Below, in pieces: positions 2,767 to 24,170 of a stretch of 24,272 nt of DNA; the first letter of the stretch is position 1; the number at the start of each line of letters is the position of its first letter. Made by a program: the position numbers and the translations under genes. Below the pieces are notes generated by a model. The model was not told the DNA's origin, searched no databases, and saw nothing but the letters and a program-made list of their open reading frames with translations. The stretch comes from a virus (Duplodnaviria; Caudoviricetes): IMG/VR virus record IMGVR_UViG_3300022909_000108, positions 1-24,272 of that record. One strand, written 5' to 3'.

Positions 2767-2798
2767 TTCGGCTTTAATTGTTTTAACAATTAAATAAA

Positions 2799-2805
2799 AT
2801 AAATA
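2799..2805 (+). promoter_or_regulatory. T4-late-type promoter box (ATAAATA)
   Basis: ATAAATA, with a second TTAAATA at 2790-2796, in the intergenic gap ~20 nt before ATG 2825. Confidence 0.55.
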
Positions 2806-2824
2806 CTGGGTAAAGAGAGTACTG

Positions 2825-3829
2825 ATGGCTACAACTACAACAATATTAGCAAGTAGATATAACACGCTTAGAAATTTAACAAATAAAGTTCTAGGAGCGT
2901 CTGTATCAGCATCACCTAATTATGGTTACGGTCAAGGATTTTCAACTTCTGCAGTTGTTGGATCTAGAGCTGATTCGACATTATCAACTGTTAATAAAAT
3001 AAGTGCGCAAGATTACGAAGATTTATACATTGACTTAGTAAGAACAAGGGCACATCAAATTGGATCTTTTGCAATATCTCCATTTGTTCTAGGTGACTAC
3101 GAAACTAACTTAGCTAGCACTGATAAAGTTGAATTGGCATATATGACTGCGCTCGAATCATTAGCTGCCCAAATAGAAACAGATAGATTTTTAATTCATC
3201 CAACGCAATTTAATCTAGACACTCTTAAGAATACTCAAGGTGCCCCGCTTGTTAGTACACGATTAAATAGTGCCAATGGCACATGGAATGGGGTTATTAC
3301 ACATATTTTTACAGTAACATTTGAATCAGATGTTAAAAGACGTGAATTTTTTAATGCCGGTGGAGAAATTCGATTAAGCGCACTTGTATCATATGTAGGT
3401 AGTCAAGCAAAAACAGTTGATTGGCAAACAATTTTAGCAGCAATGGGTAGTATTAGTTTCAAAGCTAATAATACTGCCAGCAATGTTGCCGGTCAGGGCA
3501 CAGGCTATCCGATTGGAAATTATCAATTATCTAGTACATACCAACGTGCTTATTCTCGTACCGGCGGAACAACATATGCAAGAAATAACTATACTATAGA
3601 TGTATTATCACTGAATACATCTACAATACAGTTTAAAGTTTCGTTTGTTGACGGACAACCAAACGATATTACATATGGTATCGACGAAGCAGTATTTGGA
3701 GACTTTACTAGCAGAGCTGAACTTGCTCAACCAGACGGAGTAGTAACAATTAATGGAATTGAGCATCCGACTGTATTATTTCCTATTGCAAAGTTACCAA
3801 AAGGTTCAACTGTTTCGAATCTAGGATAA
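2825..3829 (+). CDS. Virion structural protein (tail/baseplate-associated), paralog of 1843-2766
   Basis: Ser/Thr/Gly-rich 334-aa ORF with the shared 'RREFFNAGGEIRLSA' motif. Confidence 0.7.
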   Translation: MATTTTILASRYNTLRNLTNKVLGASVSASPNYGYGQGFSTSAVVGSRADSTLSTVNKISAQDYEDLYIDLVRTRAHQIGSFAISPFVLGDYETNLASTDKVELAYMTALESLAAQIETDRFLIHPTQFNLDTLKNTQGAPLVSTRLNSANGTWNGVITHIFTVTFESDVKRREFFNAGGEIRLSALVSYVGSQAKTVDWQTILAAMGSISFKANNTASNVAGQGTGYPIGNYQLSSTYQRAYSRTGGTTYARNNYTIDVLSLNTSTIQFKVSFVDGQPNDITYGIDEAVFGDFTSRAELAQPDGVVTINGIEHPTVLFPIAKLPKGSTVSNLG

Positions 3830-5906: not shown

Positions 5907-6504
5907 TCTGCAAGAATTATTTAAAAAAATATCAAATACATCTATTAATGTTAATCAAAATACTTACGTTTACTACGATAGTTTAGGTATAATAAATAAA
6001 ATTAGTAATCGTAAATTAAATGACACTGAGTTTAATATATTAGAAATTCCTATCGACGATACTAACGATATATTATCAGGTAAAAAAAGAACAAGTGATT
6101 ATATAGTAATTAATCACCCTGAAACAAAAACTCCTATACTAACACTTGTTAGTAATGTATTAATTACACCTGATGCAACTAATAATTGTTATAATATACC
6201 CAAGAATATTTCTAATGCAAATGTTACTATTATAAAAAATTTAAAAGCAAAATGTTGGGAATTAAAACTTGATGCCGCTAGTAAATTGTTTATAGAAAGT
6301 TTAAAAGACTCAAAAAACGTATTTTATTTTAGTGTAACAAAAAAGAATGATCCTAATATACTTTATAGATCTATTGAATTTAAAAATGTATCACCGGTGC
6401 CGTTTGAATACCCGTTTGAATTTAATAACGAAGATGTAAGTATATATACGTCAAAATATTTTAATATATATTCTATGGAAATTAAAGATGCCACAATTAT
6501 TTAA
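5899..6504 (+). CDS. Hypothetical protein (very AT-rich)
   Basis: 201-aa ORF with AAGGA RBS and 8-nt overlap (ATGTCTAA) with the upstream gene; no motif recognised. Confidence 0.6.
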   Translation: MSNLQELFKKISNTSINVNQNTYVYYDSLGIINKISNRKLNDTEFNILEIPIDDTNDILSGKKRTSDYIVINHPETKTPILTLVSNVLITPDATNNCYNIPKNISNANVTIIKNLKAKCWELKLDAASKLFIESLKDSKNVFYFSVTKKNDPNILYRSIEFKNVSPVPFEYPFEFNNEDVSIYTSKYFNIYSMEIKDATII

Positions 6505-9594: not shown

Positions 9595-10677
9595 ATGTAC
9601 AATTACACAGATATTAAAGAAGTACACTTGGAAGTAACACAACGATGTCAAGCTGCATGTTCTATGTGTGATCGTAATATAAATGGTGGTGAAGATAATC
9701 CTCATATTACGAATGCAGAACTTTCATTAGAAGACTGCAAGCGCATCTTTAAGCCAGAGTTTATTGCACAATTAAAAACTATGTATATGTGTGGAAATTT
9801 AGGTGATCCGATTGTTGCTAAAGATACATTAGAAATATTCAAATACTTCCGCGAACATAATCCTAATATGTGGCTAAGTATGAATACAAACGCAGGAGCA
9901 AAAAATGTTGAATGGTGGACTGAACTGGCCCATGTCTTTGGAAGAATGGGGGCTGTTATTTTTAGTGTCGACGGTCTTCGCGATACGAATCATATTTACA
10001 GACAAGGTGTAAATTGGAACAATGTAGAACGTAGCATGAAAGCGTTTGCTAGCGCTGGCGGCAGAGCACGTTGGGATTTTTTAATATTTGAACATAATGA
10101 GCATCAAGTAGAAGAAGCAGAAGCTCTTTCAATTAAATGGGGTTTTGAAAAATTTATCAAGAAGAAAACTGGCCGATTTGTAACATCGAAAGTTAAAGCT
10201 AAAGAAACACACCAATCGGTAAATAGAAAAGGTGAACAAACTGCTGTATTATCAAAACCTAAGAAAAAAGAAAATATAAATTTGGCATTACAAAAACAAG
10301 CTGAAATTGAGAAATCTTATGGCGGTATGAAGAACTATCTTGATAAATGTAACGTTTCGTGCAAAGTAGCTAAACAAGGAAGTATTTTTATTACAGCTGA
10401 AGGATTGTTAATGCCGTGTTGTTGGACTGCTGGCCGCATGTATAAATGGTGGCACGCTGATCCTAAAATAGAACAAATATGGGATCATATAGATGTCGCT
10501 GGCGGCAAAGAAGGAATTAGTGTAATAAACAACGACATTAAAGATGTTGTCGATGGCAAATTAATATCTAGTATTACTAATAGTTGGAAACTTGATAGTG
10601 TTAAAGAGGGAAAATTAGGAGTATGTGCGCAAAAATGTGGAACCGAGTTTGATCCTTATGCTGAACAATTTAAATAA
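9595..10677 (+). CDS. Radical SAM protein with C-terminal SPASM/twitch-like domain
   Basis: CxxxCxxC = CQAACSMC; 'CGNLGDP', 'TNAG', 'FSVDG'; C-terminal 'C...FITAEGLLMPCCW...CAQKC'. Confidence 0.9.
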   Translation: MYNYTDIKEVHLEVTQRCQAACSMCDRNINGGEDNPHITNAELSLEDCKRIFKPEFIAQLKTMYMCGNLGDPIVAKDTLEIFKYFREHNPNMWLSMNTNAGAKNVEWWTELAHVFGRMGAVIFSVDGLRDTNHIYRQGVNWNNVERSMKAFASAGGRARWDFLIFEHNEHQVEEAEALSIKWGFEKFIKKKTGRFVTSKVKAKETHQSVNRKGEQTAVLSKPKKKENINLALQKQAEIEKSYGGMKNYLDKCNVSCKVAKQGSIFITAEGLLMPCCWTAGRMYKWWHADPKIEQIWDHIDVAGGKEGISVINNDIKDVVDGKLISSITNSWKLDSVKEGKLGVCAQKCGTEFDPYAEQFK

Positions 10678-10685
10678 GTAGTAGT

Positions 10686-12110
10686 ATGACAGACAATAAC
10701 CCCCCTTCAGAAACATTTTGTTTGCTACCTTGGGTGCATTTAAGCACAAGACCGGACGGTAGCATGCGAGTATGTTGTACCGCAAACGCAAGTAGCGTAG
10801 GTCCTACGAATGATCACACCCATTATGGCCAAGTTGGTGTTCTTAAAACAGAAGACGGCAAGCCTAACAACTTGAATGTAAGTGATTTTGAAACTGCCTG
10901 GAACAGCACATATATGAAAAATGTGCGTAAACAAATGCTTGCAGGAGAAAAGCCAGCTAGTTGTTTAAAATGTTACAAAGAAGAAGCAGCCGGCCATAAT
11001 AGTAAGCGTATGTGGGAAACTGCGTATTGGAGTCAGCGTGTCGATGTTGACAAATTAATTGCTGATACTAAAGAAGACGGAAGTGTTCCTCCACAGCTTG
11101 CATATATAGACTTAAGATTTGGTACTAAGTGCCAGCTTGCATGTGTGATGTGCAGTCCACACGATAGTAGCGGTTGGATCAAAGATTATAAAGCAATCTT
11201 TCCTGCTGTAGAAAATGCAAGCCTAAAAGAAACTATGCAATGGCAGGATAAAGGCAGCTATAACGGCAGTAGCTACAATTGGCACAAACAGAATCCTACA
11301 TTCTGGAAACAGTTCTATGAGCAAATGCCAAGTATGCAACAAATTTATTTTGCTGGCGGCGAAAGTCTTATTATTGAAGAACACTATGAGATTCTTGAAC
11401 ATGCTATTAAAATGGGCTATGCTAAAAACCTTGAATTGCGATACAACTCAAATGGTGTAGAATGGCGCGAAGATTTGTTTGAGTTATGGAAAGAGTTTAA
11501 GCTAGTACGCTTCCATTACAGTATAGACAGCATTGAACAAATGAATGATTATATTCGTTATCCTAGTAAGTGGACACGCCAAGCAGAAGTATTTCATATA
11601 TTAGACAAAAAAACAAGCAATAACGTAGAAGTTACTGTAGCATGTGCAGTTCAAGCACTGAATATATATTATATCCCTGATCTTATTAAATGGAAACTTG
11701 AACAAGGGTTTAAAAAGATTAACATGTGGCCATTTGGCGCCGGCGGGGTAAATTATCACTTTGTTTATCATCCGCCGCATCTTAATGTTAAGGTCCTGCC
11801 TAATGAATTCAAAGCAGCGTGTCGCAAAAAGTATGAAGAATTTTATCCATGGTGGGAAGCTAATTGGGAGAAAAGTATACCAAGCTGGCATAAAGGCAAA
11901 GTAGACTACGATACTTGGCGCAATGCAAGTTATGGTATTAAACGTCTTGAAGGCATGCTAAAATTTATGGAAAGCGAAGACTGGACTGTGCGATTGCCTG
12001 AAACAAAAGAATTTTTAGATTTATGCGATAAACAACGTGGTGTTAAGTTTGAAGAAACATTTCCAGAAATGAAAGATATATTTAAAGGATTAGAAAATGG
12101 CAGTAAATGA
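10686..12110 (+). CDS. Radical SAM protein with N-terminal twitch-like Cys cluster
   Basis: N-terminal 'FCLLPW...DGSMRVCC...CLKC' precedes CQLACVMC; 'FAGGES', 'YNSNG', 'SIDS'. Confidence 0.9.
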   Translation: MTDNNPPSETFCLLPWVHLSTRPDGSMRVCCTANASSVGPTNDHTHYGQVGVLKTEDGKPNNLNVSDFETAWNSTYMKNVRKQMLAGEKPASCLKCYKEEAAGHNSKRMWETAYWSQRVDVDKLIADTKEDGSVPPQLAYIDLRFGTKCQLACVMCSPHDSSGWIKDYKAIFPAVENASLKETMQWQDKGSYNGSSYNWHKQNPTFWKQFYEQMPSMQQIYFAGGESLIIEEHYEILEHAIKMGYAKNLELRYNSNGVEWREDLFELWKEFKLVRFHYSIDSIEQMNDYIRYPSKWTRQAEVFHILDKKTSNNVEVTVACAVQALNIYYIPDLIKWKLEQGFKKINMWPFGAGGVNYHFVYHPPHLNVKVLPNEFKAACRKKYEEFYPWWEANWEKSIPSWHKGKVDYDTWRNASYGIKRLEGMLKFMESEDWTVRLPETKEFLDLCDKQRGVKFEETFPEMKDIFKGLENGSK

Positions 12111-12993
12111 TTACCTAAGAGAGCACTATATGTTGCCTATGGATCATCCAATAGCAATAGAAAACATGCGCAGACATAGTTCTAAAGCTGAAGTGTTAGA
12201 AAACATGTTTAGTGCAGCTGAGTTAGACAACATATGGAAACAAGCATTTAAAAATGATCGTCAACCTAGACTCAATCGAAACGGTACTGTTCTTATTGCA
12301 GGCGGGTTAGAAGAAATTTACTTAGAGTTTAAAGAACGTATTGATAACTTTATGGGACCTGCTGCTGCATTATCGCCTAGCATTGGAGGCAACTACTTTA
12401 TTACGCCTCAACAATATGGATTGCACAATGACAGTATCAGGCCAGAAGACTTTGAAAACACTTATAAGCATACGCCGCTAAATCACGAACGTAGAAAATA
12501 TACATGTTGGAAAAACTTTTTAATTCCATTATGGATAGGAACACATCACGACGAAGTAGATGGCGGCCAAATTGTATTTTTTAATCAACGTCATATTGAT
12601 TGGGCACATGTATATAATGGCGGAAACAAAACACCAAACATTGCTAGTGTTTACAAAATTACAACAGATTATACTGAAATTCAATTTCATGATGGTGACG
12701 GAAATGCAATACCTAAAGAAAATAATGCAACACCATTTGACAAAACTATGCATAAACTATGGATGAATACTCCATACGAGCGTCTACAAGGTTTAAGTCT
12801 TGAGAAGATTATTCCATGGGAACCTACTATTGGGATGAGTTTTGATGCAACTCAGTTACATGCAAGTAATGAAGGCACAAAAGCAGCTGGCAAAAAGATG
12901 TGGAATAGCAAAATGGGATTACTTCTTACATATCTAATTGAACTAGATGACGACTTATTGCTCGATTGGAGAGCTGAACAAGCTAAGATGTAA
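12097..12993 (+). CDS. 2OG-Fe(II) oxygenase-like protein
   Basis: HxD ('LHNDS') and distal His ('FDATQLHAS'); paralog of 20923-21615. Confidence 0.65.
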   Translation: MAVNDYLREHYMLPMDHPIAIENMRRHSSKAEVLENMFSAAELDNIWKQAFKNDRQPRLNRNGTVLIAGGLEEIYLEFKERIDNFMGPAAALSPSIGGNYFITPQQYGLHNDSIRPEDFENTYKHTPLNHERRKYTCWKNFLIPLWIGTHHDEVDGGQIVFFNQRHIDWAHVYNGGNKTPNIASVYKITTDYTEIQFHDGDGNAIPKENNATPFDKTMHKLWMNTPYERLQGLSLEKIIPWEPTIGMSFDATQLHASNEGTKAAGKKMWNSKMGLLLTYLIELDDDLLLDWRAEQAKM

Positions 12994-13723
12994 ATCGATC
13001 TAACGCTAAAGGTAGTAATATTTCTGCTACCTTTAGATTACCTTGTAAACTTAAATGATGTCCGTCATCTATGCAATACGGATTTATATCAAATTCTTCA
13101 GCAGAAACAAAATCAAATTCTTTTCTAATATCATCATAACACCGTAAGGGAAATCCCGACCGTTGAGCGTCTATAATCTGATGACCATACATTATAAACG
13201 GAATCTTTGAGTTTTCTAATATCTTTTTTGCTAGCAATACTTGCCCAAAAAACTCTGAATTCTCGTCATACTGTATACGGTTCTTAAAGACAAAAAAAGT
13301 ATTTAAATTTTTACCAGTAATTGAATGCCTTTTTGGTACTATACTCTGAGTACTATACCAGTGATAGTTTTTATATTCATAATCGCGTAGAGTATAAACA
13401 GTTGAAGAAGGGTATTTAGGTGTAAACTCAATAAAGTCTTTTTCACTTACTGGAGTAAAATCTAATAAATTCCTACTGTATCCTCTGCCTAACGTAGTAG
13501 ATTGAAAAATTATTGCATCAAACTTTAAATCAGTATCTAATATTTGTAATAATAAATCTATCTGCATACCTATACTACTACCGCCGCTAGCAGTACTGTA
13601 TATTTTGAAATCTTTATCTTTTTCTTTTAATAACGAGTTTAATAATGTAATAGGAGAACTTTGGTTATCTCTAAATGGACTTATTTCACTCCAACTGCAA
13701 CCTAAGTGTAATATTTTTTTCAT
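12983..13723 (-). CDS. SGNH/GDSL-hydrolase-like protein (esterase/acyltransferase)
   Basis: 'LGCSWS' block I Ser, 'SGGSS', 'QST', C-terminal DxxH 'DDGHHLSLQGN'. Start moved to ATG 13723 (ATGA overlap with the upstream minus-strand gene). Confidence 0.7.
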   Translation of the reverse strand: MKKILHLGCSWSEISPFRDNQSSPITLLNSLLKEKDKDFKIYSTASGGSSIGMQIDLLLQILDTDLKFDAIIFQSTTLGRGYSRNLLDFTPVSEKDFIEFTPKYPSSTVYTLRDYEYKNYHWYSTQSIVPKRHSITGKNLNTFFVFKNRIQYDENSEFFGQVLLAKKILENSKIPFIMYGHQIIDAQRSGFPLRCYDDIRKEFDFVSAEEFDINPYCIDDGHHLSLQGNLKVAEILLPLALDRFTS

Positions 13724-14430
13724 ATTTTGTTGTATCCGTTTATCATACAAGATCTAAATTGCTGATATTTTTTACTAGCCCAGCCGTGTACAATTATGTG
13801 TATTCGAGGTTCATCACTGTTATTCCACACAGCATGATTTGTACTAATATTTAACATTCTTATGTCTCCTGACTTCCATGGTATGATTCCGTAATTTTCC
13901 ATGCCGAACATACAGTCATGTGGATTATTCAATGCCAAATTAAATGCCTGTAATTTATTTTTGTCATTATCTCTGTGAGGCATTATATATCCGCCTGGTT
14001 CTAATAGCATAAATCGGACTCTTAAAAATTGATCTAACGGCATTATATTTTTTAAAAAATATGTTGTTTTTGGACACGCATCTGCAATTTCAGTCCAGTG
14101 CATTTCCGGCATAGACGAAATATCGTATTGGTCATCGCCTTGAGTAATATGTTTACCACGTCCGTGCAATACTAAACTTTTCCATCCCCAATGACTTTCG
14201 CCGTCGGATCTATGTTCATAGAAATCGTCTATAAGATTGTATGCCTCGTTATACATTTCTTCATACGGCATACTTAAATCAAGCCGCAACGATTTAATAG
14301 GACTTTCTTCGATAATCCATTTAAGTGCTTCGTCTTTGTTTAAATCACTCGGAATTTTTGGTAGATTTAAATAATGATTTTCTAATTTCCTCTTTTCGAA
14401 GAACTTTGAGATAGTCTGTATAGTACTCAT
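13720..14430 (-). CDS. Aspartyl/asparaginyl beta-hydroxylase-family 2OG-Fe(II) oxygenase
   Basis: 'RVRFMLLEPGGYIMPHRD' (HxD) and 'NHAVWNNSDEPRIHIIVHG'. Confidence 0.8.
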   Translation of the reverse strand: MSTIQTISKFFEKRKLENHYLNLPKIPSDLNKDEALKWIIEESPIKSLRLDLSMPYEEMYNEAYNLIDDFYEHRSDGESHWGWKSLVLHGRGKHITQGDDQYDISSMPEMHWTEIADACPKTTYFLKNIMPLDQFLRVRFMLLEPGGYIMPHRDNDKNKLQAFNLALNNPHDCMFGMENYGIIPWKSGDIRMLNISTNHAVWNNSDEPRIHIIVHGWASKKYQQFRSCMINGYNKI

Positions 14431-15724
14431 ATAAATCTTTCCTCCATTCGTAATTTACGATTTCATCAGGATCTAATGTAAACGTATTTACGCTCTCAGT
14501 ACCAAAGCCTGTCTTTGCTTCACTACTAGGCAAAATACCCCGAATAAAGCTATTGTTATTTTTTAATCTCTCATTATGTGCAAGAATCTTGATCATTAGA
14601 TTAAAATGTATTTGACTAAACAAATAGTATGTTTTTCTATAAGAAAGTATATTGCTAAAGTTGTATAATGTTACACAGTACTCTTGTATTTGATTGCTTA
14701 ATTGTTCTATTTCAAAAAAGCTCTCTCTATTATAAAATATATTCAATTTTTGCAATCTTAATTTTAAACTATTCCAATCAGTGGTTAAATTTTCTAAAAA
14801 CTCTTTTTCGTAATTGTCTATTTTATCTTTATTAGAATCGTGTAATGCTAACCCAGTATTGTAACAAAATTCTGCAAAGTTAGTTCCGTCATACTCTTTT
14901 ATTAATTTTTTTGTAAATTCTAACTGTTTCGAATTAATATCTTTAAAATCAACTGTATGTAAATTAGGACAGCGATCTACAATTGCAAGTGCTTGTAGTC
15001 CGTTTGCTGGTGTTACGAGTTTCTGAACGGTGGGCATTTCTTCAGAAATTAATGGCTCAGTTGCACAATTAAATACAGTGTCGGTCATGTTAGTTTCTAT
15101 TCGAAGATAGCTTCCGTATTTAAGAGCAAGATCATTATACAAATAAAATTTATGTTTGCGTTCTTCTTCAGACCATGGTCTAATTTGAAAATTATTTTCA
15201 AGTAATTTAGAAATAATTAATGCACCCGGTTTAACATTTTTAAATTCCGTTTTACCATTTCCTTTAGTAACAGAAATTGGAGTATATCCGTCATGAAATG
15301 TCTCAACACTCCGAGCAATATTTTGCAAGTCGGCAGTCATTCCTCCGCTGTAAGTAGGGCATCCTATAGATCTATAAGATTCAGTATGTATTATAAAACA
15401 TTGTTCATGCAACTCGTAATACTCTTCATTCTTATCTAATAAATGTCCTATTAGTGAATAACCTTTTAAATTTTTTCCGGTTAATTCTCTTAAATAGTAC
15501 GGATCAAATGTTCCGCTTGGCTTAGTAAACAATGCATACTCGACTGATTCTGTTTTTAAACACTCAAACGCTGAGTTATAATCTGTAAAATACTTGTATT
15601 CGATGTCGTGCCTTACTGATCCTTCGAGTAAATTATAATTTACTTCGCGACATAGTGGATCTTTAACATTTTTATCATCTACAATGTATATTGTAAATTG
15701 ATTTCTGATAGGTTTTCTTCTCAT
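14345..15724 (-). CDS. Hypothetical two-domain protein, C-terminal half possibly methyltransferase-fold
   Basis: Long ORF; start moved to ATG 15724 (GGAG RBS at 15733-15730). C-terminal 'TPANGL...VDFKDIN...LYNFSNILSY' only loosely resembles a Rossmann SAM-binding fold. Confidence 0.55.
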   Translation of the reverse strand: MRRKPIRNQFTIYIVDDKNVKDPLCREVNYNLLEGSVRHDIEYKYFTDYNSAFECLKTESVEYALFTKPSGTFDPYYLRELTGKNLKGYSLIGHLLDKNEEYYELHEQCFIIHTESYRSIGCPTYSGGMTADLQNIARSVETFHDGYTPISVTKGNGKTEFKNVKPGALIISKLLENNFQIRPWSEEERKHKFYLYNDLALKYGSYLRIETNMTDTVFNCATEPLISEEMPTVQKLVTPANGLQALAIVDRCPNLHTVDFKDINSKQLEFTKKLIKEYDGTNFAEFCYNTGLALHDSNKDKIDNYEKEFLENLTTDWNSLKLRLQKLNIFYNRESFFEIEQLSNQIQEYCVTLYNFSNILSYRKTYYLFSQIHFNLMIKILAHNERLKNNNSFIRGILPSSEAKTGFGTESVNTFTLDPDEIVNYEWRKDLYEYYTDYLKVLRKEEIRKSLFKSTKNSE

Positions 15725-15742
15725 TTTCTCTCCGTCCAATGT

Positions 15743-15773
15743 TATTTATTAACTAAGCATATAATGATAAATA
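15743..15773. promoter_or_regulatory. Divergent pair of T4-late-type promoter boxes
   Basis: ATAAATA on the minus strand (TATTTAT at 15743-15749) and on the plus strand (15767-15773), in the 54-nt gap between divergent ATGs at 15724 and 15779. Confidence 0.65.
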
Positions 15774-15778
15774 TTTTC

Positions 15779-16990
15779 ATGATATGTAGTAAACAATTTA
15801 CAGACCTCAATTTAAGACTGTTTGCACACAGTGTAAAAAATTGTTGCAAAACACTCGAAACAAATTTTACATTAGAAGACATTGAAAAATATGGACCTAA
15901 TGTATTTTCTATGCAAGCTGATATAGCCGAGCGCAGGCGTGCATTAGTATACGATGATCAATTGCCAGCAGCTTGTAAATATTGTATAGAAGCAGAACCT
16001 AACAGTATGCGTAAACTTTGGAATCGATGGGATGAACCTAAGACAGACACTGAAAAAGAAGTTATCAGTGAGACTGATTGGATTAATTATATCGAAATAG
16101 TTAATAGTACAGCATGTGATTTAGCTTGTATATATTGCAATGCTGAAAACAGTAGCACATGGGCTAAAGAAATGGGCGTTCCTATTTACAAAGCAGACTT
16201 GCATTGGAAAAATAAACTTTTAGAAAATTTTTATTTGTATTTAGAACAAAAAGATTATTCTAAAATTCCAGAAATGACATTTGCTTTTTCGGGCGGAGAG
16301 CCTACATACGACAATGAAACATTTGATCTTATTGAAAAGATTGTTCAAATTTGTAAAAACAAAACAAAAATACGGATTGATATAACTAGTAATTTTAATA
16401 CTAAACCTAAACAGTTAGACAAGTTTATAAAATTAATATCTGAGAGTGCTGACATTAAATGGACATGGGTTGCAAGTATTGATGATATTTACGAAAGAAA
16501 CGATGCTATAAGATTTCATAGTAACTTTTCAATCATAGAAGAAAACATCAAAAAGCTATACAATCTTGATAATGTTATGCTTTGCATATTACCTAGTATT
16601 AATGTATTCTGTTTACCTTATCTTAAAGAGTTTGTTAATTATTTTACAAAGTTGCTCGGAAAAGAAAACTATATTAGTAAATGGCACTTTGGACAAAATA
16701 CAATTACGGGCCCTGAATATCTCAGTCCTTATATGTTAGATAAGTCTTACGAATCATTTATAGATAGCGCAATTGAAGAATCTAATAAATTACCTAATAT
16801 ATCAAATAGTGTTCACATACAATGGATATCACATTTAGAAAATATTAAAAATAATTTAGGATTATATAACGAAAATAAATGGTGGAAAATTTTACGTGGG
16901 TTTTCTAGTCAACGAGCTGCTGCACGAAACGGTATTAATATACTAGATACATTTCCGCACTTGCAAAATAAAATACAAGAGGTAGCATAA
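15779..16990 (+). CDS. Radical SAM protein with N-terminal twitch-like Cys cluster
   Basis: 'MICSKQF...NCC...CKYC' then CDLACIYC; 'FSGGEPT', 'TSN', 'SIDD'. Start moved to ATG 15779 so the N-terminus aligns with paralogs 10686 and 18588. Confidence 0.88.
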   Translation: MICSKQFTDLNLRLFAHSVKNCCKTLETNFTLEDIEKYGPNVFSMQADIAERRRALVYDDQLPAACKYCIEAEPNSMRKLWNRWDEPKTDTEKEVISETDWINYIEIVNSTACDLACIYCNAENSSTWAKEMGVPIYKADLHWKNKLLENFYLYLEQKDYSKIPEMTFAFSGGEPTYDNETFDLIEKIVQICKNKTKIRIDITSNFNTKPKQLDKFIKLISESADIKWTWVASIDDIYERNDAIRFHSNFSIIEENIKKLYNLDNVMLCILPSINVFCLPYLKEFVNYFTKLLGKENYISKWHFGQNTITGPEYLSPYMLDKSYESFIDSAIEESNKLPNISNSVHIQWISHLENIKNNLGLYNENKWWKILRGFSSQRAAARNGINILDTFPHLQNKIQEVA

Positions 16991-18048
16991 TGTGGCCATT
17001 AGAATCTAAAGACATAGAACAATTGCATTTCGATCTTACAAATTTTTGTAATGCAAAATGTCCCGAATGTGTAAGAGAAATTGATAGTTTATGTCGTCCG
17101 TTTTTAGATAAAGACATGCTATCTTTAGAATTGATAAAAGAAAGATTTACAAAAGAACAGCTACCAAGATTAAACGCTGTTAGATTTTGTGGTAGTTTCG
17201 GCGATCCATTAACTCATCCAAAACTATACGAAATTACACAGCATTTTATAGACGAATGGCCTGACATTAAAATTATTTGTAGTACAAACGGCGGATTAAA
17301 AAATGAAAAAGATTGGAAAAAATTAGCAGAACTATATCAAGGCAACCGCTGGATTGTATTTGGCATTGATGGCTTAGAAGATACTAACCACAAATATCGC
17401 GTAGGCGTAAATTGGAATAAACTAAATCAAAACATTAAAGCGTTTATAGATGCAGGCGGATGTGCCCATTGGCAATTTATTGTATTTCCGTGGAATGAAC
17501 ATCAAGTTTTAGATGCCCGATCATATAGTATAGATGTTGGATTTCAAAACTTTTTTATAATACAAAGTCATAGGAACGGAGCTACTGATAGCATGTATAG
17601 TAATAAAACTATCGAGTTTCAGTTTGAGATGTTAGAAAAAATTAGTAAAAAGAAATCTAAAAAATGGAACGATATAATGGGAATGCAAAAGATTAGGAAT
17701 GATCCTACTCGAAAAGCATTGCCAGAAAATACTACAACTATTGATTGTGAAGTTATTGGAAATCGCGATATTATGATTATGGCAACAGGTGCAGTATATC
17801 CGTGTTGCCACCTCGGCGCAAGAATGTTTAATAACGACAAAAAATTAAAGTTATGGTATGAGTTGGCCGGCGGCACAGATACATTTAATCTAAAAAATCA
17901 CACAATGGATGAAATTATCAAAGGTAAGTTCTTTTCGATTATACATGATAGCTGGGCAATAGCGCAAGAAAATCAACTAGGAAAATGCAGTGCCTGTATT
18001 GAAACCTGCGGTACTAAAAAACGGTTAGATAAAAAATATGTCTTGTAA
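16990..18048 (+). CDS. Radical SAM protein with C-terminal SPASM/twitch-like domain, paralog of 9595-10677
   Basis: CNAKCPEC; 'CGSFGDP', 'TNGG', 'FGIDG', 'NEHQV'; C-terminal 'GAVYPCC...CIETCG'; GAGG RBS. Confidence 0.9.
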   Translation: MWPLESKDIEQLHFDLTNFCNAKCPECVREIDSLCRPFLDKDMLSLELIKERFTKEQLPRLNAVRFCGSFGDPLTHPKLYEITQHFIDEWPDIKIICSTNGGLKNEKDWKKLAELYQGNRWIVFGIDGLEDTNHKYRVGVNWNKLNQNIKAFIDAGGCAHWQFIVFPWNEHQVLDARSYSIDVGFQNFFIIQSHRNGATDSMYSNKTIEFQFEMLEKISKKKSKKWNDIMGMQKIRNDPTRKALPENTTTIDCEVIGNRDIMIMATGAVYPCCHLGARMFNNDKKLKLWYELAGGTDTFNLKNHTMDEIIKGKFFSIIHDSWAIAQENQLGKCSACIETCGTKKRLDKKYVL

Positions 18049-18595
18049 AATATTAATAAGTGGCAATTCTAATTTTGGGTTAGCTAAAGAACTTAAAAAA
18101 ATATATATTGACGCAAATTTTGCCAGCCGGGCATCGGGCTTTGATCTTACTACAACTTCAGGTCAAGAATTATTTGCAAAATTAGCTCAACACCACGACG
18201 TAGTAGTTATTAACAGTGCCTTATGGAAATTTAATCAAACTGTGTTATTAGATACTGTTTATAAAAAACTAATTGAAGTAAAAAAACCTACAAGAATTAT
18301 TTGCGTAGGTAGCACAACTGATAGAGTAAAAAATGGAAAAGCCTGGTTATATAATGCTGAAAAAAAAGCGTTAAGAGATTATTCAAACACTTTAGCAATC
18401 AGCGGAGTGTGGAATAGTGATGCACCTAAAGTTAGTTATATTAGTTTTGGCACACTAACAAACAATCAGGAAAAACACCCTGATCGAAAATGCTTAAACA
18501 TTAGTAAAGCAGCTGAATATATTAAATGGCTAATTGATCAACCTAGCGATATTAATATTAATGAAATCAGCATAGATAGGATGCAACATGACTAA
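18038..18595 (+). CDS. Short-chain dehydrogenase/reductase (SDR)-like NAD(P)-binding protein
   Basis: N-terminal 'ILISGNSNFGLA' glycine motif, 'INSA', 'VGS', catalytic YxxxK ('YNAEK'). Confidence 0.75.
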   Translation: MSCKILISGNSNFGLAKELKKIYIDANFASRASGFDLTTTSGQELFAKLAQHHDVVVINSALWKFNQTVLLDTVYKKLIEVKKPTRIICVGSTTDRVKNGKAWLYNAEKKALRDYSNTLAISGVWNSDAPKVSYISFGTLTNNQEKHPDRKCLNISKAAEYIKWLIDQPSDININEISIDRMQHD

Positions 18596-19802
18596 TCCAT
18601 TAAAAAGTCATCCTACGTTTTGTCCTCATCTTTGGCAACATTTTAGTACAGATCCTAATGGACTAGTAAAGTTTTGCTGTGAAGCAGCTCACATGAATGA
18701 CAACGAGCTTGATTTGTCAACCTATACAATTAAAGAAATATTTAATAGTAATGCTTACAACACGATTAGAAGAAATAATCTTAGAAGAATTAAAAATCGA
18801 GAGTGTGCATCGTGTTGGAATAAAGAAGCAAAGGGCCTTAAAAGCAAGCGACAACTTGATATAGATGCAATTGACGATCCAGCAGTAGCCAACAATATGG
18901 AACGTTGGTCTAACAGCGAAGACATAGTGCCGATATATTATAATTTGCAAGTTTCAAAAACTTGTAACCAAGCATGCATAATGTGCGAACCATTCTATTC
19001 AAGTTTAATTGAATCAATATATAATCGAACCGATCCAGCTGTTGCTGAAAAGTTTAATTTTGATAGATGGAATAGAAATAGCGTTCCATTTAAAAATATT
19101 GCCAAAGTTCCAAAATTTTGGGAAGGACTTTCTGAAGTAGACAGTCAGTTAACACAGTTGTATGTTACTGGCGGAGAACCGTTTATAATAAAAGAACTTT
19201 GGACATATATTGAGTCATTAGTAACTAGAGGCTATGCAAAAAATATAAATTTTTGGTGCAACACTAACTTTAGTAAAATAACGTCTGCTCAATTAGATTT
19301 ATTGTTAGAATTTAGGTCAGTTGAATTAAATTTAAGTATAGATGCATACGGAGACACATTAGAATATTTACGCCATGCATCTAATTGGAAAACTATTAAC
19401 CAAAATATTGATCTTGCAATGCCTTATATAAAAGAAAATTTTAAGATTACAATAGTGCCGGTAATGCATGCGTTAAGTATTATAGAACTTGATCAATTAA
19501 TAATTTGGTGGAATGACAAAATGAAAGGCAAAGCATGCAAAATAAATCCTATAATTCTCACTTCACCTTTTTCTATGACATTAGATAGTTTACCTAGTAA
19601 ATATCTTGTTGGACTAAAAGAAAAAATTAACGCAGTACTTGATGAATCATCGGCAGAACATTTTTTAAATGTATTTCAGTCAATAGACAATCATTGCTTT
19701 AATTTAGAAAATAATAAACAATTAAGAAGCGAACTTGAATTTTTTAAACACGTAATGAAAAAAGATTTTCCAAACAAGTTCGATTACATATATGATATAT
19801 AG
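18588..19802 (+). CDS. Radical SAM protein with N-terminal twitch-like Cys cluster, paralog of 10686-12110
   Basis: 'FCPHLW...NGLVKFCC...CASC' then CNQACIMC; 'TGGEPF', 'NTN', 'LSIDA'. Confidence 0.9.
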   Translation: MTNPLKSHPTFCPHLWQHFSTDPNGLVKFCCEAAHMNDNELDLSTYTIKEIFNSNAYNTIRRNNLRRIKNRECASCWNKEAKGLKSKRQLDIDAIDDPAVANNMERWSNSEDIVPIYYNLQVSKTCNQACIMCEPFYSSLIESIYNRTDPAVAEKFNFDRWNRNSVPFKNIAKVPKFWEGLSEVDSQLTQLYVTGGEPFIIKELWTYIESLVTRGYAKNINFWCNTNFSKITSAQLDLLLEFRSVELNLSIDAYGDTLEYLRHASNWKTINQNIDLAMPYIKENFKITIVPVMHALSIIELDQLIIWWNDKMKGKACKINPIILTSPFSMTLDSLPSKYLVGLKEKINAVLDESSAEHFLNVFQSIDNHCFNLENNKQLRSELEFFKHVMKKDFPNKFDYIYDI

Positions 19803-19814
19803 AGAAGCAAACTT

Positions 19815-20933
19815 ATGACTGAAGATTTAAAATGGAGCAATTATGATTTTACTAAAATTCCTTTTGAGGATATTGTTAGTGTAGGCCAAAGAACTCTTCT
19901 CTACAGGGATCTATTTACTGTTAGTTGGTTGCTTGGGAGATTCTGTAACTATAAGTGTAGTTACTGTTGGCCCTATGCTAGAAGTGATCGCAAAGACCAT
20001 AGACCAACAGAACTATGTCTTCATACAATTGATGAAATAAAGAGGCAAGCTCGTGATAACGGTTTTAATAGTTTTCATTTTAGTTTATCTGGCGGTGAGC
20101 CTACTTTTCACCCTGGCTACTTGGATATTCTCAAACATCTTGCTGATGATGTTGATAATACTAATTATACTAGTGTTCACATGACATCAAACTGCTCACG
20201 CAATATGGCTTGGTTTGAGCAGTATGTGGAGGCAGTAAAGCCATTCCATCGTGCAAGTATTACAGCAAGCCTGCATACAGAACATTTAAACACTAAAGAG
20301 AAGATGCAGGACTTTGCAGACAAGCTAATCTTCTGTCAAGAGCACGATGTACAAGTTACGATTAATATGGTTATGGTTCCGGACTGGTTTGAGCGTGATT
20401 GGGAAAACGCATTGTTCTTTCACGAGCAAGGCATAAACGTCACGCTAAAGCCTCAAAGCGACCCTACAGCTAGCCGAGTAGTTGATGGGTATACAGCAGA
20501 GAACCTAAAGCGACTACACAACGGCATGCCGCAACGTGCGTACACAGAGAGCAAGCGTAAATGGGAAGGTAGACCTAAAGCAACATTCCAAGTTCCTAGA
20601 GATATTATGGGAAAAAATGATGCAAGTGTTCCTTGGCATATGCAAGTTGAGTTAAAAGACTCTAAGGGCGAAAAATGGTACATGGACCAAGCAGAACGAT
20701 TTAACGCCTTTAATTTCAACAATTTTGAAGGATGGGCTTGCAATGCCGGTTACAGTGGCATTATAATACGCGAGCCAGACGGTTCGGTAAAAAGAAGCTA
20801 TAGTTGTCACGATGCACCTCTTGGTAACATCGAAACAGGTTTTACACTGTTTAAGACACCTAAAACATGTATTACTAAGAGTTGTGTATCAAGTGCTGAT
20901 AGTAAGATACCTAAGAGAAAACATGCGCAGTAG
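19815..20933 (+). CDS. Radical SAM protein with a short C-terminal Cys cluster
   Basis: CNYKCSYC; 'LSGGEPTFHP', 'TSN', 'ASLH'; C-terminal 'CNAG...DGSVKRSYSC...C...C'. Confidence 0.9.
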   Translation: MTEDLKWSNYDFTKIPFEDIVSVGQRTLLYRDLFTVSWLLGRFCNYKCSYCWPYARSDRKDHRPTELCLHTIDEIKRQARDNGFNSFHFSLSGGEPTFHPGYLDILKHLADDVDNTNYTSVHMTSNCSRNMAWFEQYVEAVKPFHRASITASLHTEHLNTKEKMQDFADKLIFCQEHDVQVTINMVMVPDWFERDWENALFFHEQGINVTLKPQSDPTASRVVDGYTAENLKRLHNGMPQRAYTESKRKWEGRPKATFQVPRDIMGKNDASVPWHMQVELKDSKGEKWYMDQAERFNAFNFNNFEGWACNAGYSGIIIREPDGSVKRSYSCHDAPLGNIETGFTLFKTPKTCITKSCVSSADSKIPKRKHAQ

Positions 20934-21615
20934 TACACAAATAGAAAAAATTAAAAAAACACATTCTGATCCTGTGCAAATATTTAATGCATTGGACGAA
21001 ACTAAGATTAAATTTCTATTAGACTACTATCATAGTCAAGACAAAATAGAAAAAAATACAGGTCCAAAAGTAGTTTATGTAAAAGAAGGAACAGGCATAA
21101 TTGACGATATGCTTATACTGTTGCGCAAACAGTTTGGCAATTTTAAAGTTCGTGCTTGCCACTTCTTTGATGTTGATAATCCTCACGTATTGCATATAGA
21201 CGATAGTTATGATTATCCAAATAGTTACAAAGCATTTACTATACCGTTATGGGTAGAATCAGGTGATTGTAATAAAATTAAATTGGTCATGTTTGATCAA
21301 TATTATTATGGCGGCCCAGTAAAGTTTTTCAAAGGTGAAGTGTTTGAAAAAGAAGTTATCTTTTATAACAAGCATCTATACGATTATACTGATATTGAAA
21401 ATTTATCAAACACTAGTATACTTAAACCAATAAAATTACAATTACTCAGTCATTTAAAGGAAGAATGGTTAGAAGGTCTTAGTGTGCAAACATATTATCC
21501 ATGGACAATAGGATCGATAATAGCATTTGATAGTTTAAAGATACATTGCTCTAGTAACTTCAAAAAAGTAGGTATCAATCGAAAAATTGGACTAAGTATC
21601 TTTACGGAGATTTAA
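20923..21615 (+). CDS. 2OG-Fe(II) oxygenase-like protein, paralog of 12097-12993
   Basis: 'VLHIDD' (HxD), 'FTIPLW', 'FDSLKIHCS'. Start moved from 20812 to ATG 20923, giving a short overlap with the upstream stop. Confidence 0.65.
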   Translation: MRSSTQIEKIKKTHSDPVQIFNALDETKIKFLLDYYHSQDKIEKNTGPKVVYVKEGTGIIDDMLILLRKQFGNFKVRACHFFDVDNPHVLHIDDSYDYPNSYKAFTIPLWVESGDCNKIKLVMFDQYYYGGPVKFFKGEVFEKEVIFYNKHLYDYTDIENLSNTSILKPIKLQLLSHLKEEWLEGLSVQTYYPWTIGSIIAFDSLKIHCSSNFKKVGINRKIGLSIFTEI

Positions 21616-22347
21616 ATGAAGAATCATATCATTACAACTGAAGAAAAAAAGAAACTTAAAGTTAATTATCTTGAAGCGTATGAGGAAGGGATAATCACTA
21701 ATCCTAAAATAATGGATATTGCTTGTGAAATGCAATTAGACGCAATTGGAGATTTTGTTCCACTAAACTTTAAAGTAGATTTATTTCAATTTCAGCAAGA
21801 AATTAAAAAATATGAATCATCATGGGTTCCTTATTTGCATCGAGAAGGTGTACTTAATGATCGACAAGGGCTAAATTTAATAGGATTGCCTGGCGATACT
21901 CCGACTGATAGTTTATCTATGCCAGAAGCCCAACGCCGCACAGGTCGCAAATTGTCTGAATTAGATTTTGACACTCCTACTGAATTATATTATGACCTAC
22001 AGAGTATACACCCGTTGTTAAATGTTTTTCCTAAATTAGGTCGTTGTAGTTTAGTAAAGGTTAACACCGGCGGCTGGTTTCCTAAACATAGAGATGGTAT
22101 TTTATTACAACGTCAAACATTTAGAATTGTATTATTTCTTACTAATACCGGACATGCACATTATGAATGGGAACATGATCACAGAGTTAGACAAATTGAA
22201 GAAGGTCGTGCATACTATATAGATACTAGAAAAACACATAGGACGCACAGTTATGTTCATGACAGCATACATTTAGTTATGAATATACCAAAAACGTATG
22301 ATAATGTGTTGCGTGTATTAAATATATTAGATGCTGGCGAATCGTAA
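21616..22347 (+). CDS. Aspartyl/asparaginyl beta-hydroxylase-like 2OG-Fe(II) oxygenase
   Basis: 'GGWFPKHRD' (HxD) and 'IDTRKTHRTHS...IHLVMN'; GGAG RBS. Confidence 0.7.
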   Translation: MKNHIITTEEKKKLKVNYLEAYEEGIITNPKIMDIACEMQLDAIGDFVPLNFKVDLFQFQQEIKKYESSWVPYLHREGVLNDRQGLNLIGLPGDTPTDSLSMPEAQRRTGRKLSELDFDTPTELYYDLQSIHPLLNVFPKLGRCSLVKVNTGGWFPKHRDGILLQRQTFRIVLFLTNTGHAHYEWEHDHRVRQIEEGRAYYIDTRKTHRTHSYVHDSIHLVMNIPKTYDNVLRVLNILDAGES

Positions 22348-22829
22348 TGTTTAAAAAGTTAGATGTAGAATATAACAAAGAAGAACTTTTAAGTTTAGCA
22401 AATTCTTTGGAATATAATCGTGCATCTAAAGAATTAGGTAGGCAAATACCTCAAGAAATCGTACCTGCTTTTGGATTAGATCATCCGTTGATAAAAAGTA
22501 TAATCCAACAACTACCTAAAGTGCGGTTTTACAACAGCAGTTTTATTAGAACTACTCCTAATACTGTTATAGATCCGCATACTGATAGTTCTGGGTTAGA
22601 TAGTATACAGCGTACAGTTAATTTTTTATTTCCTCTTAAAAATTACAATAGTCCTTTAACAATACACAATAATGGCGAGCATGTATTTGATATTACAGGC
22701 CCTATTGCATTTAGATGTGACTTACCTCACAGTTATGAAAATCGAACAGATGATTATAGGGTAGCACTTATATTACAGGTAAAATATCCTTTTACCTTTG
22801 AACGACTAATAGTAACTAAGGCAATATAA
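22347..22829 (+). CDS. Small 2OG-Fe(II)/cupin oxygenase-like protein
   Basis: 'IDPHTD' (HxD), 'DLPHSYEN...RVAL'. Confidence 0.7.
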   Translation: MFKKLDVEYNKEELLSLANSLEYNRASKELGRQIPQEIVPAFGLDHPLIKSIIQQLPKVRFYNSSFIRTTPNTVIDPHTDSSGLDSIQRTVNFLFPLKNYNSPLTIHNNGEHVFDITGPIAFRCDLPHSYENRTDDYRVALILQVKYPFTFERLIVTKAI

Positions 22830-23410
22830 TGAAAATAGGATTTTATGGCCATTCTACTTGTGCATATCGTAGCAGCGAATCATTTATAGATTTAATTGGA
22901 ACAACGTTAGGTGCTGACATAGTTAATGTGGGTGTCCGCATGGGCTCAGAGGAACGCTCTTTATTAGACTTAAAAAAAACTAAACCTGATATTGCAGTTG
23001 TGTTTCATAGTCAAAGCAGATTAATTTATTCACCAAATAGAGATTACGATTTTGATGCAAGCAGTGATTACGGACTTCTCCCAGATGAAATTGAAATGCT
23101 CGAAACCTATAACACTTATTTTAGAGATAAAGAATTAGAACGTGCAAGGCTATATGGTGCTGCAATGCAAATAGAACAGTATTGTAATGATACAAATACG
23201 TTTGTAATTAATTGTGTTGATACTGCGCACCCATTTCCTAATTGGATTAAATTATCTAATGAAGATATTAAATGCATGACAATAGCAAAATCTAATAGAT
23301 GTGATTTTTCTCAAGGACCAAACGGCATTACAGCCAAAGGCAACGCATTAATTGCAACGCACTTGTTAAATACTATTGCGGCTCGTGACGGAGTGGTCAA
23401 ACGTGTCTGA
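22829..23410 (+). CDS. SGNH-hydrolase-like protein, probably lacking the catalytic His
   Basis: 'KIGFYGHSTC', 'NVGVRMGS', C-terminal 'PNGITAKGNALIA' where an SGNH protein would have a His; the last 11 codons (including the stop) lie within the tRNA. Confidence 0.55.
   Translation: MKIGFYGHSTCAYRSSESFIDLIGTTLGADIVNVGVRMGSEERSLLDLKKTKPDIAVVFHSQSRLIYSPNRDYDFDASSDYGLLPDEIEMLETYNTYFRDKELERARLYGAAMQIEQYCNDTNTFVINCVDTAHPFPNWIKLSNEDIKCMTIAKSNRCDFSQGPNGITAKGNALIATHLLNTIAARDGVVKRV
23367..23377 (+). promoter_or_regulatory. T4-late-type promoter immediately upstream of the tRNA
   Basis: TAAATACTATT ends one base before tRNA position 1 (G23378); matches the extended T4 late consensus as I recall it (TATAAATACTATT). 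Confidence 0.6.
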
Positions 23411-23468
23411 CTGTAAATCAGATGGTAGCAATAGCACCTACGGTGGTTCGAATCCCCCAGCCGCACCA
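23378..23468 (+). tRNA. tRNA-Tyr (GUA), bacterial class II type, with atypical acceptor and T stems
   Basis: Acceptor GCGGCT/AGCCGC, D-stem ACG/CGT with GG in the loop, anticodon stem TCTGA/TCAGA with loop CTGTAAA (GTA at 23413-23415), long variable arm, GGTTCGAATCC T-arm, discriminator A and encoded CCA (23466-23468). Confidence 0.85.
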
Positions 23469-24170
23469 TTTTTTTCTGCATACACAGACATCGGCTGGAA
23501 AGAAGAGTATCAATCTTTATGTAGTGACTTGCAGCATTCTGGTAAAAATGAACTTTATTATTATGCTATTCCTAATATTCTACAAAAGCGTTTAAATCTT
23601 CCTAGTAATACTAGATTGTCATTTGTTGACATACCAAAACCTGTAGAATCAATTTGGCATAGAGATACTAGGGGAGAATGGGTAATTAATGTATATATAG
23701 AGCCAGGAAACGGAAAAACTGAATTTAGGACAGGAAACTTTACATCAGAAAAAAATCAATCTTGGTGTATAAATGTATCTGAAGAGCACAGGGTTTGTAC
23801 GCCAAATCCTAGACAATTTATACAGATAGAATTAGAACAAACTTGGCAATGGCCAGATACTAAATTGTTATGGCAGGAATGGTTAAAACAAAAACACAAT
23901 AATAGTTTAATTAATGATAGGGCCTGGCTGCATTTGCATCATTCTGAGTACGTAAGTCAACTTACAAGAACAGTAGACTGGCATCAAGCACCTGGAATAT
24001 GGGGACTTGTTATAGTACCTATTAAAGGACATACAATAATAGAGTATAAAGATGCTATTATAAATATTAACAAACCTACATTAGTGCAAACTAATATTTT
24101 ACATAAATGGATTCCTGGGACCGAAGATAATGTTTTTTGGGCATATAAAATAAAATGTATTACACGATAG
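23403..24170 (+). CDS. 2OG-Fe(II)/cupin oxygenase-like protein with two tandem domains; start uncertain, probably GTG 23403 inside the tRNA
   Basis: 'IWHRD...INVSEEHRV' in domain 1 and 'DWHQA...QTNILHKW' in domain 2. The frame has no ATG at all; GGAG (23390-23393) lies 9 nt before GTG 23403. Confidence 0.6.
   Translation: MSDCKSDGSNSTYGGSNPPAAPFFSAYTDIGWKEEYQSLCSDLQHSGKNELYYYAIPNILQKRLNLPSNTRLSFVDIPKPVESIWHRDTRGEWVINVYIEPGNGKTEFRTGNFTSEKNQSWCINVSEEHRVCTPNPRQFIQIELEQTWQWPDTKLLWQEWLKQKHNNSLINDRAWLHLHHSEYVSQLTRTVDWHQAPGIWGLVIVPIKGHTIIEYKDAIININKPTLVQTNILHKWIPGTEDNVFWAYKIKCITR

Follow-up and report, generated by a model that had tools for sequence, protein, structure and literature searches.

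A family of double-bulged tRNA-like RNAs in large phages and its predicted SGNH-fold partner protein

The window analysed here, a 24,272-nt stretch of viral DNA (IMG/VR record IMGVR_UViG_3300022909_000108), carries near its end a tRNA-Tyr-like sequence whose acceptor branch departs from the canonical tRNA geometry at two places, and the question raised by this locus is whether the sequence is an error, a decaying or merely tolerated tRNA, or an RNA with a role outside translation. A sequence-only reading had proposed that it may be chargeable but poorly ribosome-competent, acting as an aminoacyl donor or as a decoy. The coordinates of the RNA, its parts and the two overlapping ORFs are given in Table 1.

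Table 1. Features of the RNA-protein locus in the window.
Feature	Position	Strand	Basis or remark
Partner gene, 193-aa protein of predicted SGNH fold	22829..23410	+	Stop and final codons fall within the RNA
Double-bulged tRNA-like RNA (type I), Tyr identity	23378..23468	+	Sequence, ARAGORN, Rfam, family alignment, pair counts
5′ acceptor strand, 8 nt (G23378-G23385) before T23386	23378..23385	+	C23384 (position 7) unpaired
Anticodon loop, GUA at 23413-23415, U33	23411..23417	+	Sequence
Variable arm, 19 nt	23423..23441	+	Bulge and length not conserved (L176, L089, L207)
T-stem, 4 bp, central bulge (GG-W-GG / CCCC)	23442..23458	+	Motif recurs in type II hairpins
Bicupin-like ORF	23403..24170	+	Likely GTG start and first ~22 codons inside the RNA

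Both departures are plain in the letters, as had been noted earlier: eight nucleotides precede the U8 equivalent T23386, and 11 nt (23454-23464) separate the T-loop from the discriminator A23465, which is followed by CCA (23466-23468). Instead of the 7/5 geometry with its 12-bp acceptor branch, the RNA has 11 bp and two bulges, and the fold proposed from the single sequence, with C23384 and T23444 bulged, was upheld by the pairing in the family alignment described below, in which G23385 is predicted to pair with C23458 and the 5′ strand of the T-stem spans 23442-23446, including T23444. U8, the D-loop GG, the T-loop and the CCA of a cloverleaf are present, and U33, A73 and an anticodon arm of normal form with a 5-bp stem are also found in the window copy. 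The marks on which the Tyr assignment had been based (G1-C72, A73, GUA and a long variable arm, next to the encoded CCA) were all found, and A73, G34, U35 and G1-C72 match the TyrRS identity set as listed in PMC9976931, a comparison of marks only. The 19-nt length of the variable arm stood, but the bulged A described in it proved incidental, the arm of the close relative L176 being 3 nt shorter and having no bulge; a GNRA-tetraloop reading of this arm was rejected, because L089 breaks the pattern and the arm varies. ARAGORN assigned the RNA to tRNA-Tyr, and Rfam RF00005 gave a score of 35.8 bits (gathering threshold 29) and placed two deletions in the 3′ strand. Single-sequence folding (z -0.82) gave another T-stem register and does not discriminate. 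BLAST against named phages returned only ordinary tRNA-Tyr-like partial matches, and no promoter or terminator signal above chance was found around the RNA.

Searches tied to Tyr suggested a one-off. Patterns bound to the Tyr anticodon or the D-arm recovered only the same phage and an unrelated tRNA in L002 (3002-3086, minus strand), an ordinary tRNA-Tyr that is one base short in its 3′ acceptor strand and, with a 7-nt 5′ strand, falls outside the family; among 80 loci reached via a radical SAM gene, the tRNA occurred in the same phage only. The one-off reading was overturned by the family. In L085, a homolog sharing 33% identity with ORF 22829-23410 precedes a tRNA-like sequence of the same geometry, which ARAGORN missed at default settings. 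A geometry-only pattern matched 25 viral loci, and a looser pattern matched at least 121 metagenome loci (~190 estimated; full flanks for 80) and 46 loci in prokaryotic genomes, the cellular (GTDB) genomes having been scanned with the RNA pattern only. A cloverleaf filter was passed by 25/25 viral, 38/121 metagenome (among the matches listed) and 0/46 prokaryotic loci, and 49 of the 50 filter-passing sequences were retained after L166, a truncated ordinary tRNA, was dropped. The window RNA is a member of a conserved, apparently undescribed family of double-bulged tRNA-like RNAs in large phages, which comprises at least 49 distinct phage or metagenome RNAs with 8 nt before U8, 11 nt from the T-loop to the discriminator, and two bulges. 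The element is not Tyr-specific: the family includes Gly (the commonest), Tyr, Phe, Pro, Thr and Asn anticodon types as well as broken loops.

The alignment of the 49 RNAs defined the shared fold. In the double-bulge fold 94.2% of the cells were paired, compared with 43-54% in slid controls, and two-sided changes were found in 15 of 20 pairs overall and in six of the seven acceptor pairs, so that the stems covary across the family, as the covariation check proposed earlier had called for. The 3′ acceptor strand leaves 7 nt, and position 7 is unpaired in all 49 RNAs: pair 7:84 forms in none of them, alignment column 7 is C, T or A and never G, and column 8 is always G. A full 5-bp T-stem register likewise gave no standard pair at the disputed position (0/49). 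The T-stem bulge is an A in 44/49, and the D-arm and positions 8-10 are normal. Because the T-arm letters were largely set by the search pattern, as was the CCA, and because the G8-C pair is invariant across the 49 RNAs, the case for the T-arm rests on position 7, on the type II hairpins described below and on a generic T-loop scan of the loci found from the protein side, in which GG-W-GG was present in every 11-nt RNA within 100 nt of the gene.

An indel in the C5 run at 23454-23458 had been named as a possible source of the unusual geometry. No indel was found there in the six covering runs of eight compared (X5, X13, X14, X15, X16 and X17), all of them contigs and not raw reads, with the same habitat label in all six, possibly from one campaign and with X5 possibly the source of the window itself; X18 does not span the run, and X21 is a short gapped piece of another tRNA. 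The RNA-library contigs X14, X15 and X16 span the RNA, and contigs show neither expression nor ends. Canonical homologs, with decay confined to this copy, had been the other concern, and the homologs keep the odd geometry. The geometry is neither an assembly error nor decay.

A gene of the same protein family as ORF 22829-23410 lies within 100 nt of 46/49 family RNAs; the remaining three had no partner within the DNA available, L175 and L262 having been left out of the partner search. No partner gene was found in the 15-kb fragment of L112. Among the matches listed, a partner was detected at 23/25 viral and 36/38 metagenome family loci and at 0/83 non-family metagenome matches. Searched from the protein side, 53 viral loci fell into 36 clusters at 90% identity, of which 35 are accompanied by the RNA or a motif hairpin; the motif is present in 19 of the 20 clusters not first found via the RNA, the other 16 having been found through it. 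In the 77-kb fragment of L144, no family RNA was detected by model R1. A type I RNA, as in the window, adjoins the partner gene in 20/36 clusters. In 13/36 clusters (type II; 11 called by one detector, one by another and one by eye), the motif instead forms a hairpin directly 5′ of a 7/5 or degenerate tRNA and consists of a helix, a 1-3-nt bulge, GG/CC, a bulged A and then G-C, several hairpins having by eye C-G where type I has G8-C. The hairpin detector fired on 5/318 mock genes, and on 1/165 distant tRNAs versus 10/31 nearby ones.

On a tree of 52 partner proteins, the RNA architecture changes six times, at least five of them forced by well-supported branches, against a mean of 13.1 after shuffling, which indicates that evolution has retained the motif on changing tRNA bodies; three separate groups of this tree contain GUA RNAs. 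The RNA overlaps the 3′ end of the partner gene in 25/49 cases and lies upstream of it in 9/49; it is antisense to the gene in L133, L125, L141 and L161, a type II RNA lies 1.3 kb away in L135, and a type I RNA ~66 kb away in L152. This variety of downstream, upstream, opposite-strand and distant placements suggests that the RNA works in trans. Apart from the pair, no gene family is conserved; the most frequent one occurs in 11/50 loci, so that no acceptor gene emerges. From this two-way association, the RNA and the partner protein very probably form one functional module. The earlier statement that no aminoacyl-transferase is recognisable in the window missed the adjacent gene, and ORF 22829-23410 would be the best candidate consumer of the RNA.

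The partner was then compared with known proteins. The AlphaFold2 model (pLDDT 93.9) best matched SGNH/GDSL esterases (Foldseek E 8.6e-5; VIA Z 12.7, rmsd 3.2, 149 residues) and also SGNH-like proteins of uncultured phages, and the partner is predicted to be an SGNH-fold protein. The family contains 177 clusters at 50% identity. In 94 mostly full-length members, with blocks assigned by eye against Table 2 of PMC10792757, the block I nucleophile is G7-x-S9, and Ser9 is kept in 91. Further kept residues are S40 (93/94), E42 (92), R43 (94), K49 (93), H60 (87), D74 (94), R107 (91) and N165 (91), and S40-E-E-R43, K49, H60, D74, R107, W139 and N165 stand out as the invariant residues of the family. 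The block V Asp-x-x-His is not conserved in these 94 members, Asn165 being the conserved residue in that region; a DxxH pattern occurs in 3/94, at unconserved places, and the block II and III residues are non-standard. According to PMC10792757, the superfamily includes the D-alanyl transferase DltD as well as rearranged and two-chain triads, and the OSK domain of Oskar is an RNA-binding member without a triad. On the model, catalysis by the partner is plausible, perhaps through another triad such as one with His60 and Asp74 or one completed in a dimer; since the block V Asp/His is absent and blocks II and III are non-standard, it may, by analogy with the OSK domain, be a non-catalytic RNA binder. 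The window partner had no match in Pfam, PHROGs, NCBIfam or PADLOC, and none in named phages by BLAST; a PDB sequence search named nothing for it, the ESM Atlas returned unnamed viral clusters only, and across 33 family members PADLOC gave one weak match. Aligned by hhalign with the other SGNH-like ORF of the window, it gave no significant result. That other ORF (12983-13750, minus strand) was recognised by motif, with a D-x-x-H near its C-terminus and no Pfam match, and is not linked to a tRNA within the window.

Whether such RNAs could be charged and yet kept from the ribosome was considered from the anticodon loop and the synthetase identity marks. U33 is present in 15/49 type I RNAs, with the rows of L263 and L186 re-read by hand, versus 162/164 other tRNAs of the same loci, a control probably inflated by ARAGORN scoring; U33 or a 7-nt loop is missing in 34/49 family RNAs. 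The three closest relatives of the window RNA have C33, the window copy U33. In type II bodies, position 33 is G or A in L115, L125, L127, L135 and L161 and U in L119, L121, L145 and L148. Compared with the identity sets in Table 1 of PMC9976931, U73 with G1-C72 was found in 17/17 NCC RNAs, and a switch to C1-G72 with A73 in 3/3 AGG RNAs; the window-type GUA RNAs have A73 in 4/4, and the synthetase marks often switch together with the anticodon. A canonical tRNA-Gly(TCC) stands beside the family RNA in contigs L112, L129 and G003. The loss of U33, the retained Gly, Pro and window-Tyr identity sets and the coexisting tRNA-Gly give indirect support to the earlier proposal of a chargeable but poorly ribosome-competent RNA. 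In addition, the two bulges fall at the acceptor and T-stem pairs that set EF-Tu affinity (PMC11231383).

Other observations count against a donor role. Identity is discordant in many RNAs, with U73 in 6/10 GUA RNAs, A73 in 0/8 GAA RNAs and C73 in the GUU RNA; the 7-nt anticodon loop is absent in 4/49, and the anticodon is ambiguous in four. In the window copy, U33 and the anticodon arm are as in ordinary tRNAs; many family copies sit in tRNA clusters and not in enzyme arrays, and 8/4 tRNAs, one of them with a T-stem bulge, functioned in translation in E. coli (PMC5389517).

Taking both sides together, we tentatively favour, at slightly less than even confidence, the reading that the RNA is a chargeable, ribosome-excluded tRNA bound and used by the partner as an aminoacyl donor. 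Host RNase P would cut the RNA out of the operon transcript, and the host synthetase matching the identity marks, here TyrRS, would charge it. With position 7 and a T-stem nucleotide bulged, EF-Tu would bind the RNA less well, and the same bulges would form the handle bound by the partner, the bulged T-stem being the predicted contact. Ser9 of the partner would then receive the amino acid for transfer to an acceptor; the most plausible one, guessed from the neighbouring genes, would be a surface glycan or protein that the nearby enzymes synthesise or modify. A different tRNA body or anticodon would bring in a different amino acid. More doubtful, though possible, is a general scheme of modular aminoacyl delivery, in which an SGNH-fold enzyme with a rebuilt active site captures charged tRNA by a bulged-helix handle, either built into the T-arm or grafted on as a 5′ hairpin, and exchange of the RNA resets the amino acid (Gly, Tyr, Pro, Thr, Ser, Leu, Phe or Asn).

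The neighbourhood on which the acceptor guess is based lies at 9595-22829, where six radical SAM(-SPASM) genes and oxygenase-like ORFs are found, with glycosyltransferase-like genes upstream; this array follows tail-like genes, and its gene content differs between close relatives. Among 27 window ORFs scanned, Pfam recognised six radical SAM genes, two oxygenases resembling Asp/Arg hydroxylases and, weakly, a glycosyltransferase. Comparable cyanophage arrays were read as surface-polysaccharide or metabolite tailoring systems (Iyer et al., PMC7824862), and neither SGNH nor GDSL occurs in that paper. An upstream ORF of the window resembles jumbo-phage proteins, and related contigs reach 382 kb. 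The bicupin-like ORF is a neighbour and not a conserved part of the module; residues 1-33 of its model have pLDDT <50. It apparently starts at the GTG inside the anticodon arm, and the frame is kept in relatives: in L176, L207 and L089 the variable arm differs by 3 nt (91 vs 88 nt), and L207 and L089 encode only a one-cupin-length version.

The same linkage would also be expected if the RNA and the protein formed a complex without any transfer, the RNA serving as a decoy or sensor for host tRNA-cutting defences, or as an antitoxin or pseudo-substrate. In these last two roles it would hold the protein, which might be an aminoacyl-tRNA hydrolase or a binder without catalytic activity, in check for as long as it stays intact and charged. 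The lack of a canonical triad and of a conserved acceptor gene, the diverse and sometimes broken anticodon loops, and the patchy presence of the pair (both ORFs and the RNA are absent at this site in the syntenic relatives L003, L004 and L007) fit such a complex, as do a phage tRNA-Tyr that counters retron-Eco7 and irregular tRNAs near toxin-antitoxin genes, reported in PMC11555353 and PMC5389517, respectively. However, PADLOC was blank for the window protein and weakly positive for the single family member noted above, a plain decoy needs no concerted switches of acceptor end and anticodon such as those of the Pro and Gly types, and Ser9 is almost invariant, while a decoy alone leaves the protein unexplained. 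We regard this alternative as the main rival, less likely than the donor reading.

An improbable alternative is a cis-acting processing or feedback signal, by which host tRNA-trimming enzymes would cut the partner message and the protein would bind the motif and regulate its own expression. The 3′ overlaps seen in about half of the family (25/49) suit this idea, excision in the window would remove the partner stop codon and the likely start of the next gene, and some type II tRNA bodies are degenerate. Nevertheless, the RNA is on the opposite strand in the four loci named above, upstream in nine, 1.3 kb off in L135 and ~66 kb off in G003, and a cut signal needs neither an encoded CCA, although this was pattern-fixed, nor anticodon-matched identity.

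Little probability is likewise given to a working translational tRNA of tolerated odd geometry, whose gene link would reflect hitch-hiking or a dedicated helper protein. The window copy, with U33, a 5-bp anticodon stem, A73 and CCA, would allow it, and non-7/5 tRNAs can translate, the selC* tRNA-Cys having its own factors (PMC5389517). But C33 in the three closest relatives, the 34/49 RNAs without U33 or a 7-nt loop and the coexistence of canonical isoacceptors argue against it, and hitch-hiking leaves unexplained why the motif is rebuilt as a hairpin on unrelated tRNAs. Finally, it is exceedingly improbable that the RNA is an assembly error or a decayed pseudogene, or owes its shape to the frames that overlap it: the low Rfam score (35.8 bits) and the overlap with two ORFs, where an 11-nt strand leaves the GTG at 23403 in frame, would suit such a view, but the six covering runs lack an indel, 49 distinct RNAs share the geometry with compensatory changes, and 21 of them do not overlap the partner's 3′ end, which rules out reading-frame constraint as the cause.

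Among known systems, the nearest RNA architecture is that of the selC* tRNA-Cys and the minor 8/4 tRNA-Sec with a bulged A51a (Mukai et al., PMC5389517; PMC7609411). In these RNAs as in the present family, eight nucleotides form the 5′ acceptor strand, the 4-bp T-stem is interrupted by a bulge (51a) in its middle, U73 is frequent, and a dedicated protein is encoded nearby, in their case SelB* or CysRS*. In contrast, they have a 12-bp branch with eight acceptor pairs and Cys or Sec anticodons, reside in cellular hosts and translate (PMC5389517), whereas the present family has an 11-bp branch, a second bulge, many anticodons and an SGNH-fold partner as predicted. No GCA or UCA anticodon was found among the 49 RNAs, and the D-arm is ordinary and not tRNA-Sec-like as in allo-tRNAs. 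With neither an 8-bp acceptor stem nor a Cys or opal anticodon, the family does not belong to the selC*/8/4 tRNAs.

The nearest logic, with unrelated parts, is that of the non-proteogenic tRNA-Gly of S. aureus and FmhB/FemA/FemB (PMC7826273), in which the tRNA interacts poorly with EF-Tu and is preferred by the transferase through D- and T-arm determinants; the same logic may apply here. That system differs in its RNA changes, its enzyme family, its chromosomal location, its single amino acid and its known acceptor. The present family, for its part, is phage-borne and would serve several amino acids. No Fem family was found among the Pfam matches of 27 window ORFs, the linked protein being of predicted SGNH fold instead. 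The Fem fold is GNAT-like. In another tRNA-like system, Ro60 binds a bulged stem of Y RNA. Ro60/TROVE with its tRNA-like Y RNA, mentioned for jumbo phages in PMC7824862, resembles the present pair in that a phage protein gene stands with a tRNA-like RNA gene and a separable helix may act as the protein handle; the protein folds are unrelated, and in the present RNA the acceptor end, with its CCA, is free. Rfam gave no Y RNA match in the window or the six loci scanned, only tRNA. Within the SGNH/GDSL superfamily (PMC10792757), the partner shares the predicted fold (Z 12.7) and the block I serine but lacks the block V Asp/His and has invariant residues of its own.

In the literature searched, outside which most subscription papers lie, neither the RNA family nor any pairing of an SGNH protein with a tRNA was found to be described. 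The 11-bp double-bulged acceptor branch is a tRNA architecture that we did not find described, and such genes are overlooked by annotation tools or listed among normal tRNAs. With its strict two-way association, the pair provides a testable two-gene case of phage tRNAs outside translation, relevant to the reasons for which phages carry tRNAs. If the RNA is an aminoacyl donor, the partner would add a new fold to the tRNA-dependent aminoacyl transferases, and the motif would be a portable RNA handle diverting charged tRNA from the ribosome, which could aid engineering; if the RNA is a decoy or antitoxin, the pair would be a new RNA-based conflict module.

Several minor observations were made at other loci. 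L135 has the partner gene as a tandem pair of paralogs (2299-3708), with a single shared type II RNA 1.3 kb downstream. Family RNAs with a shrunken anticodon arm lie upstream of a divergent partner clade in L093, L110 and L111, and this clade has G-A/T-S-E in block I. The type II tRNA-Pro bodies of L125 (2868-2944, minus strand), L127 (2905-2981), L135 (4971-5047) and L139 (1459-1531) share a C and then an A before the GG-containing acceptor strand, readable as an A1-G72 mismatch or as a further A bulged out behind C1; A33 is present in three of them. L116 carries a second, longer tRNA-like sequence (6188-6285) with an 11-nt 3′ strand, CCA and a different T-stem, 2.5 kb from the partner gene. 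The high-GC loci L258, L292 and L305 share an element of ~100 nt which has a T-arm, ACCA and ends complementary to each other (GCCGG/GCCGT ... ACGGC) and possibly represents another tRNA-like family.
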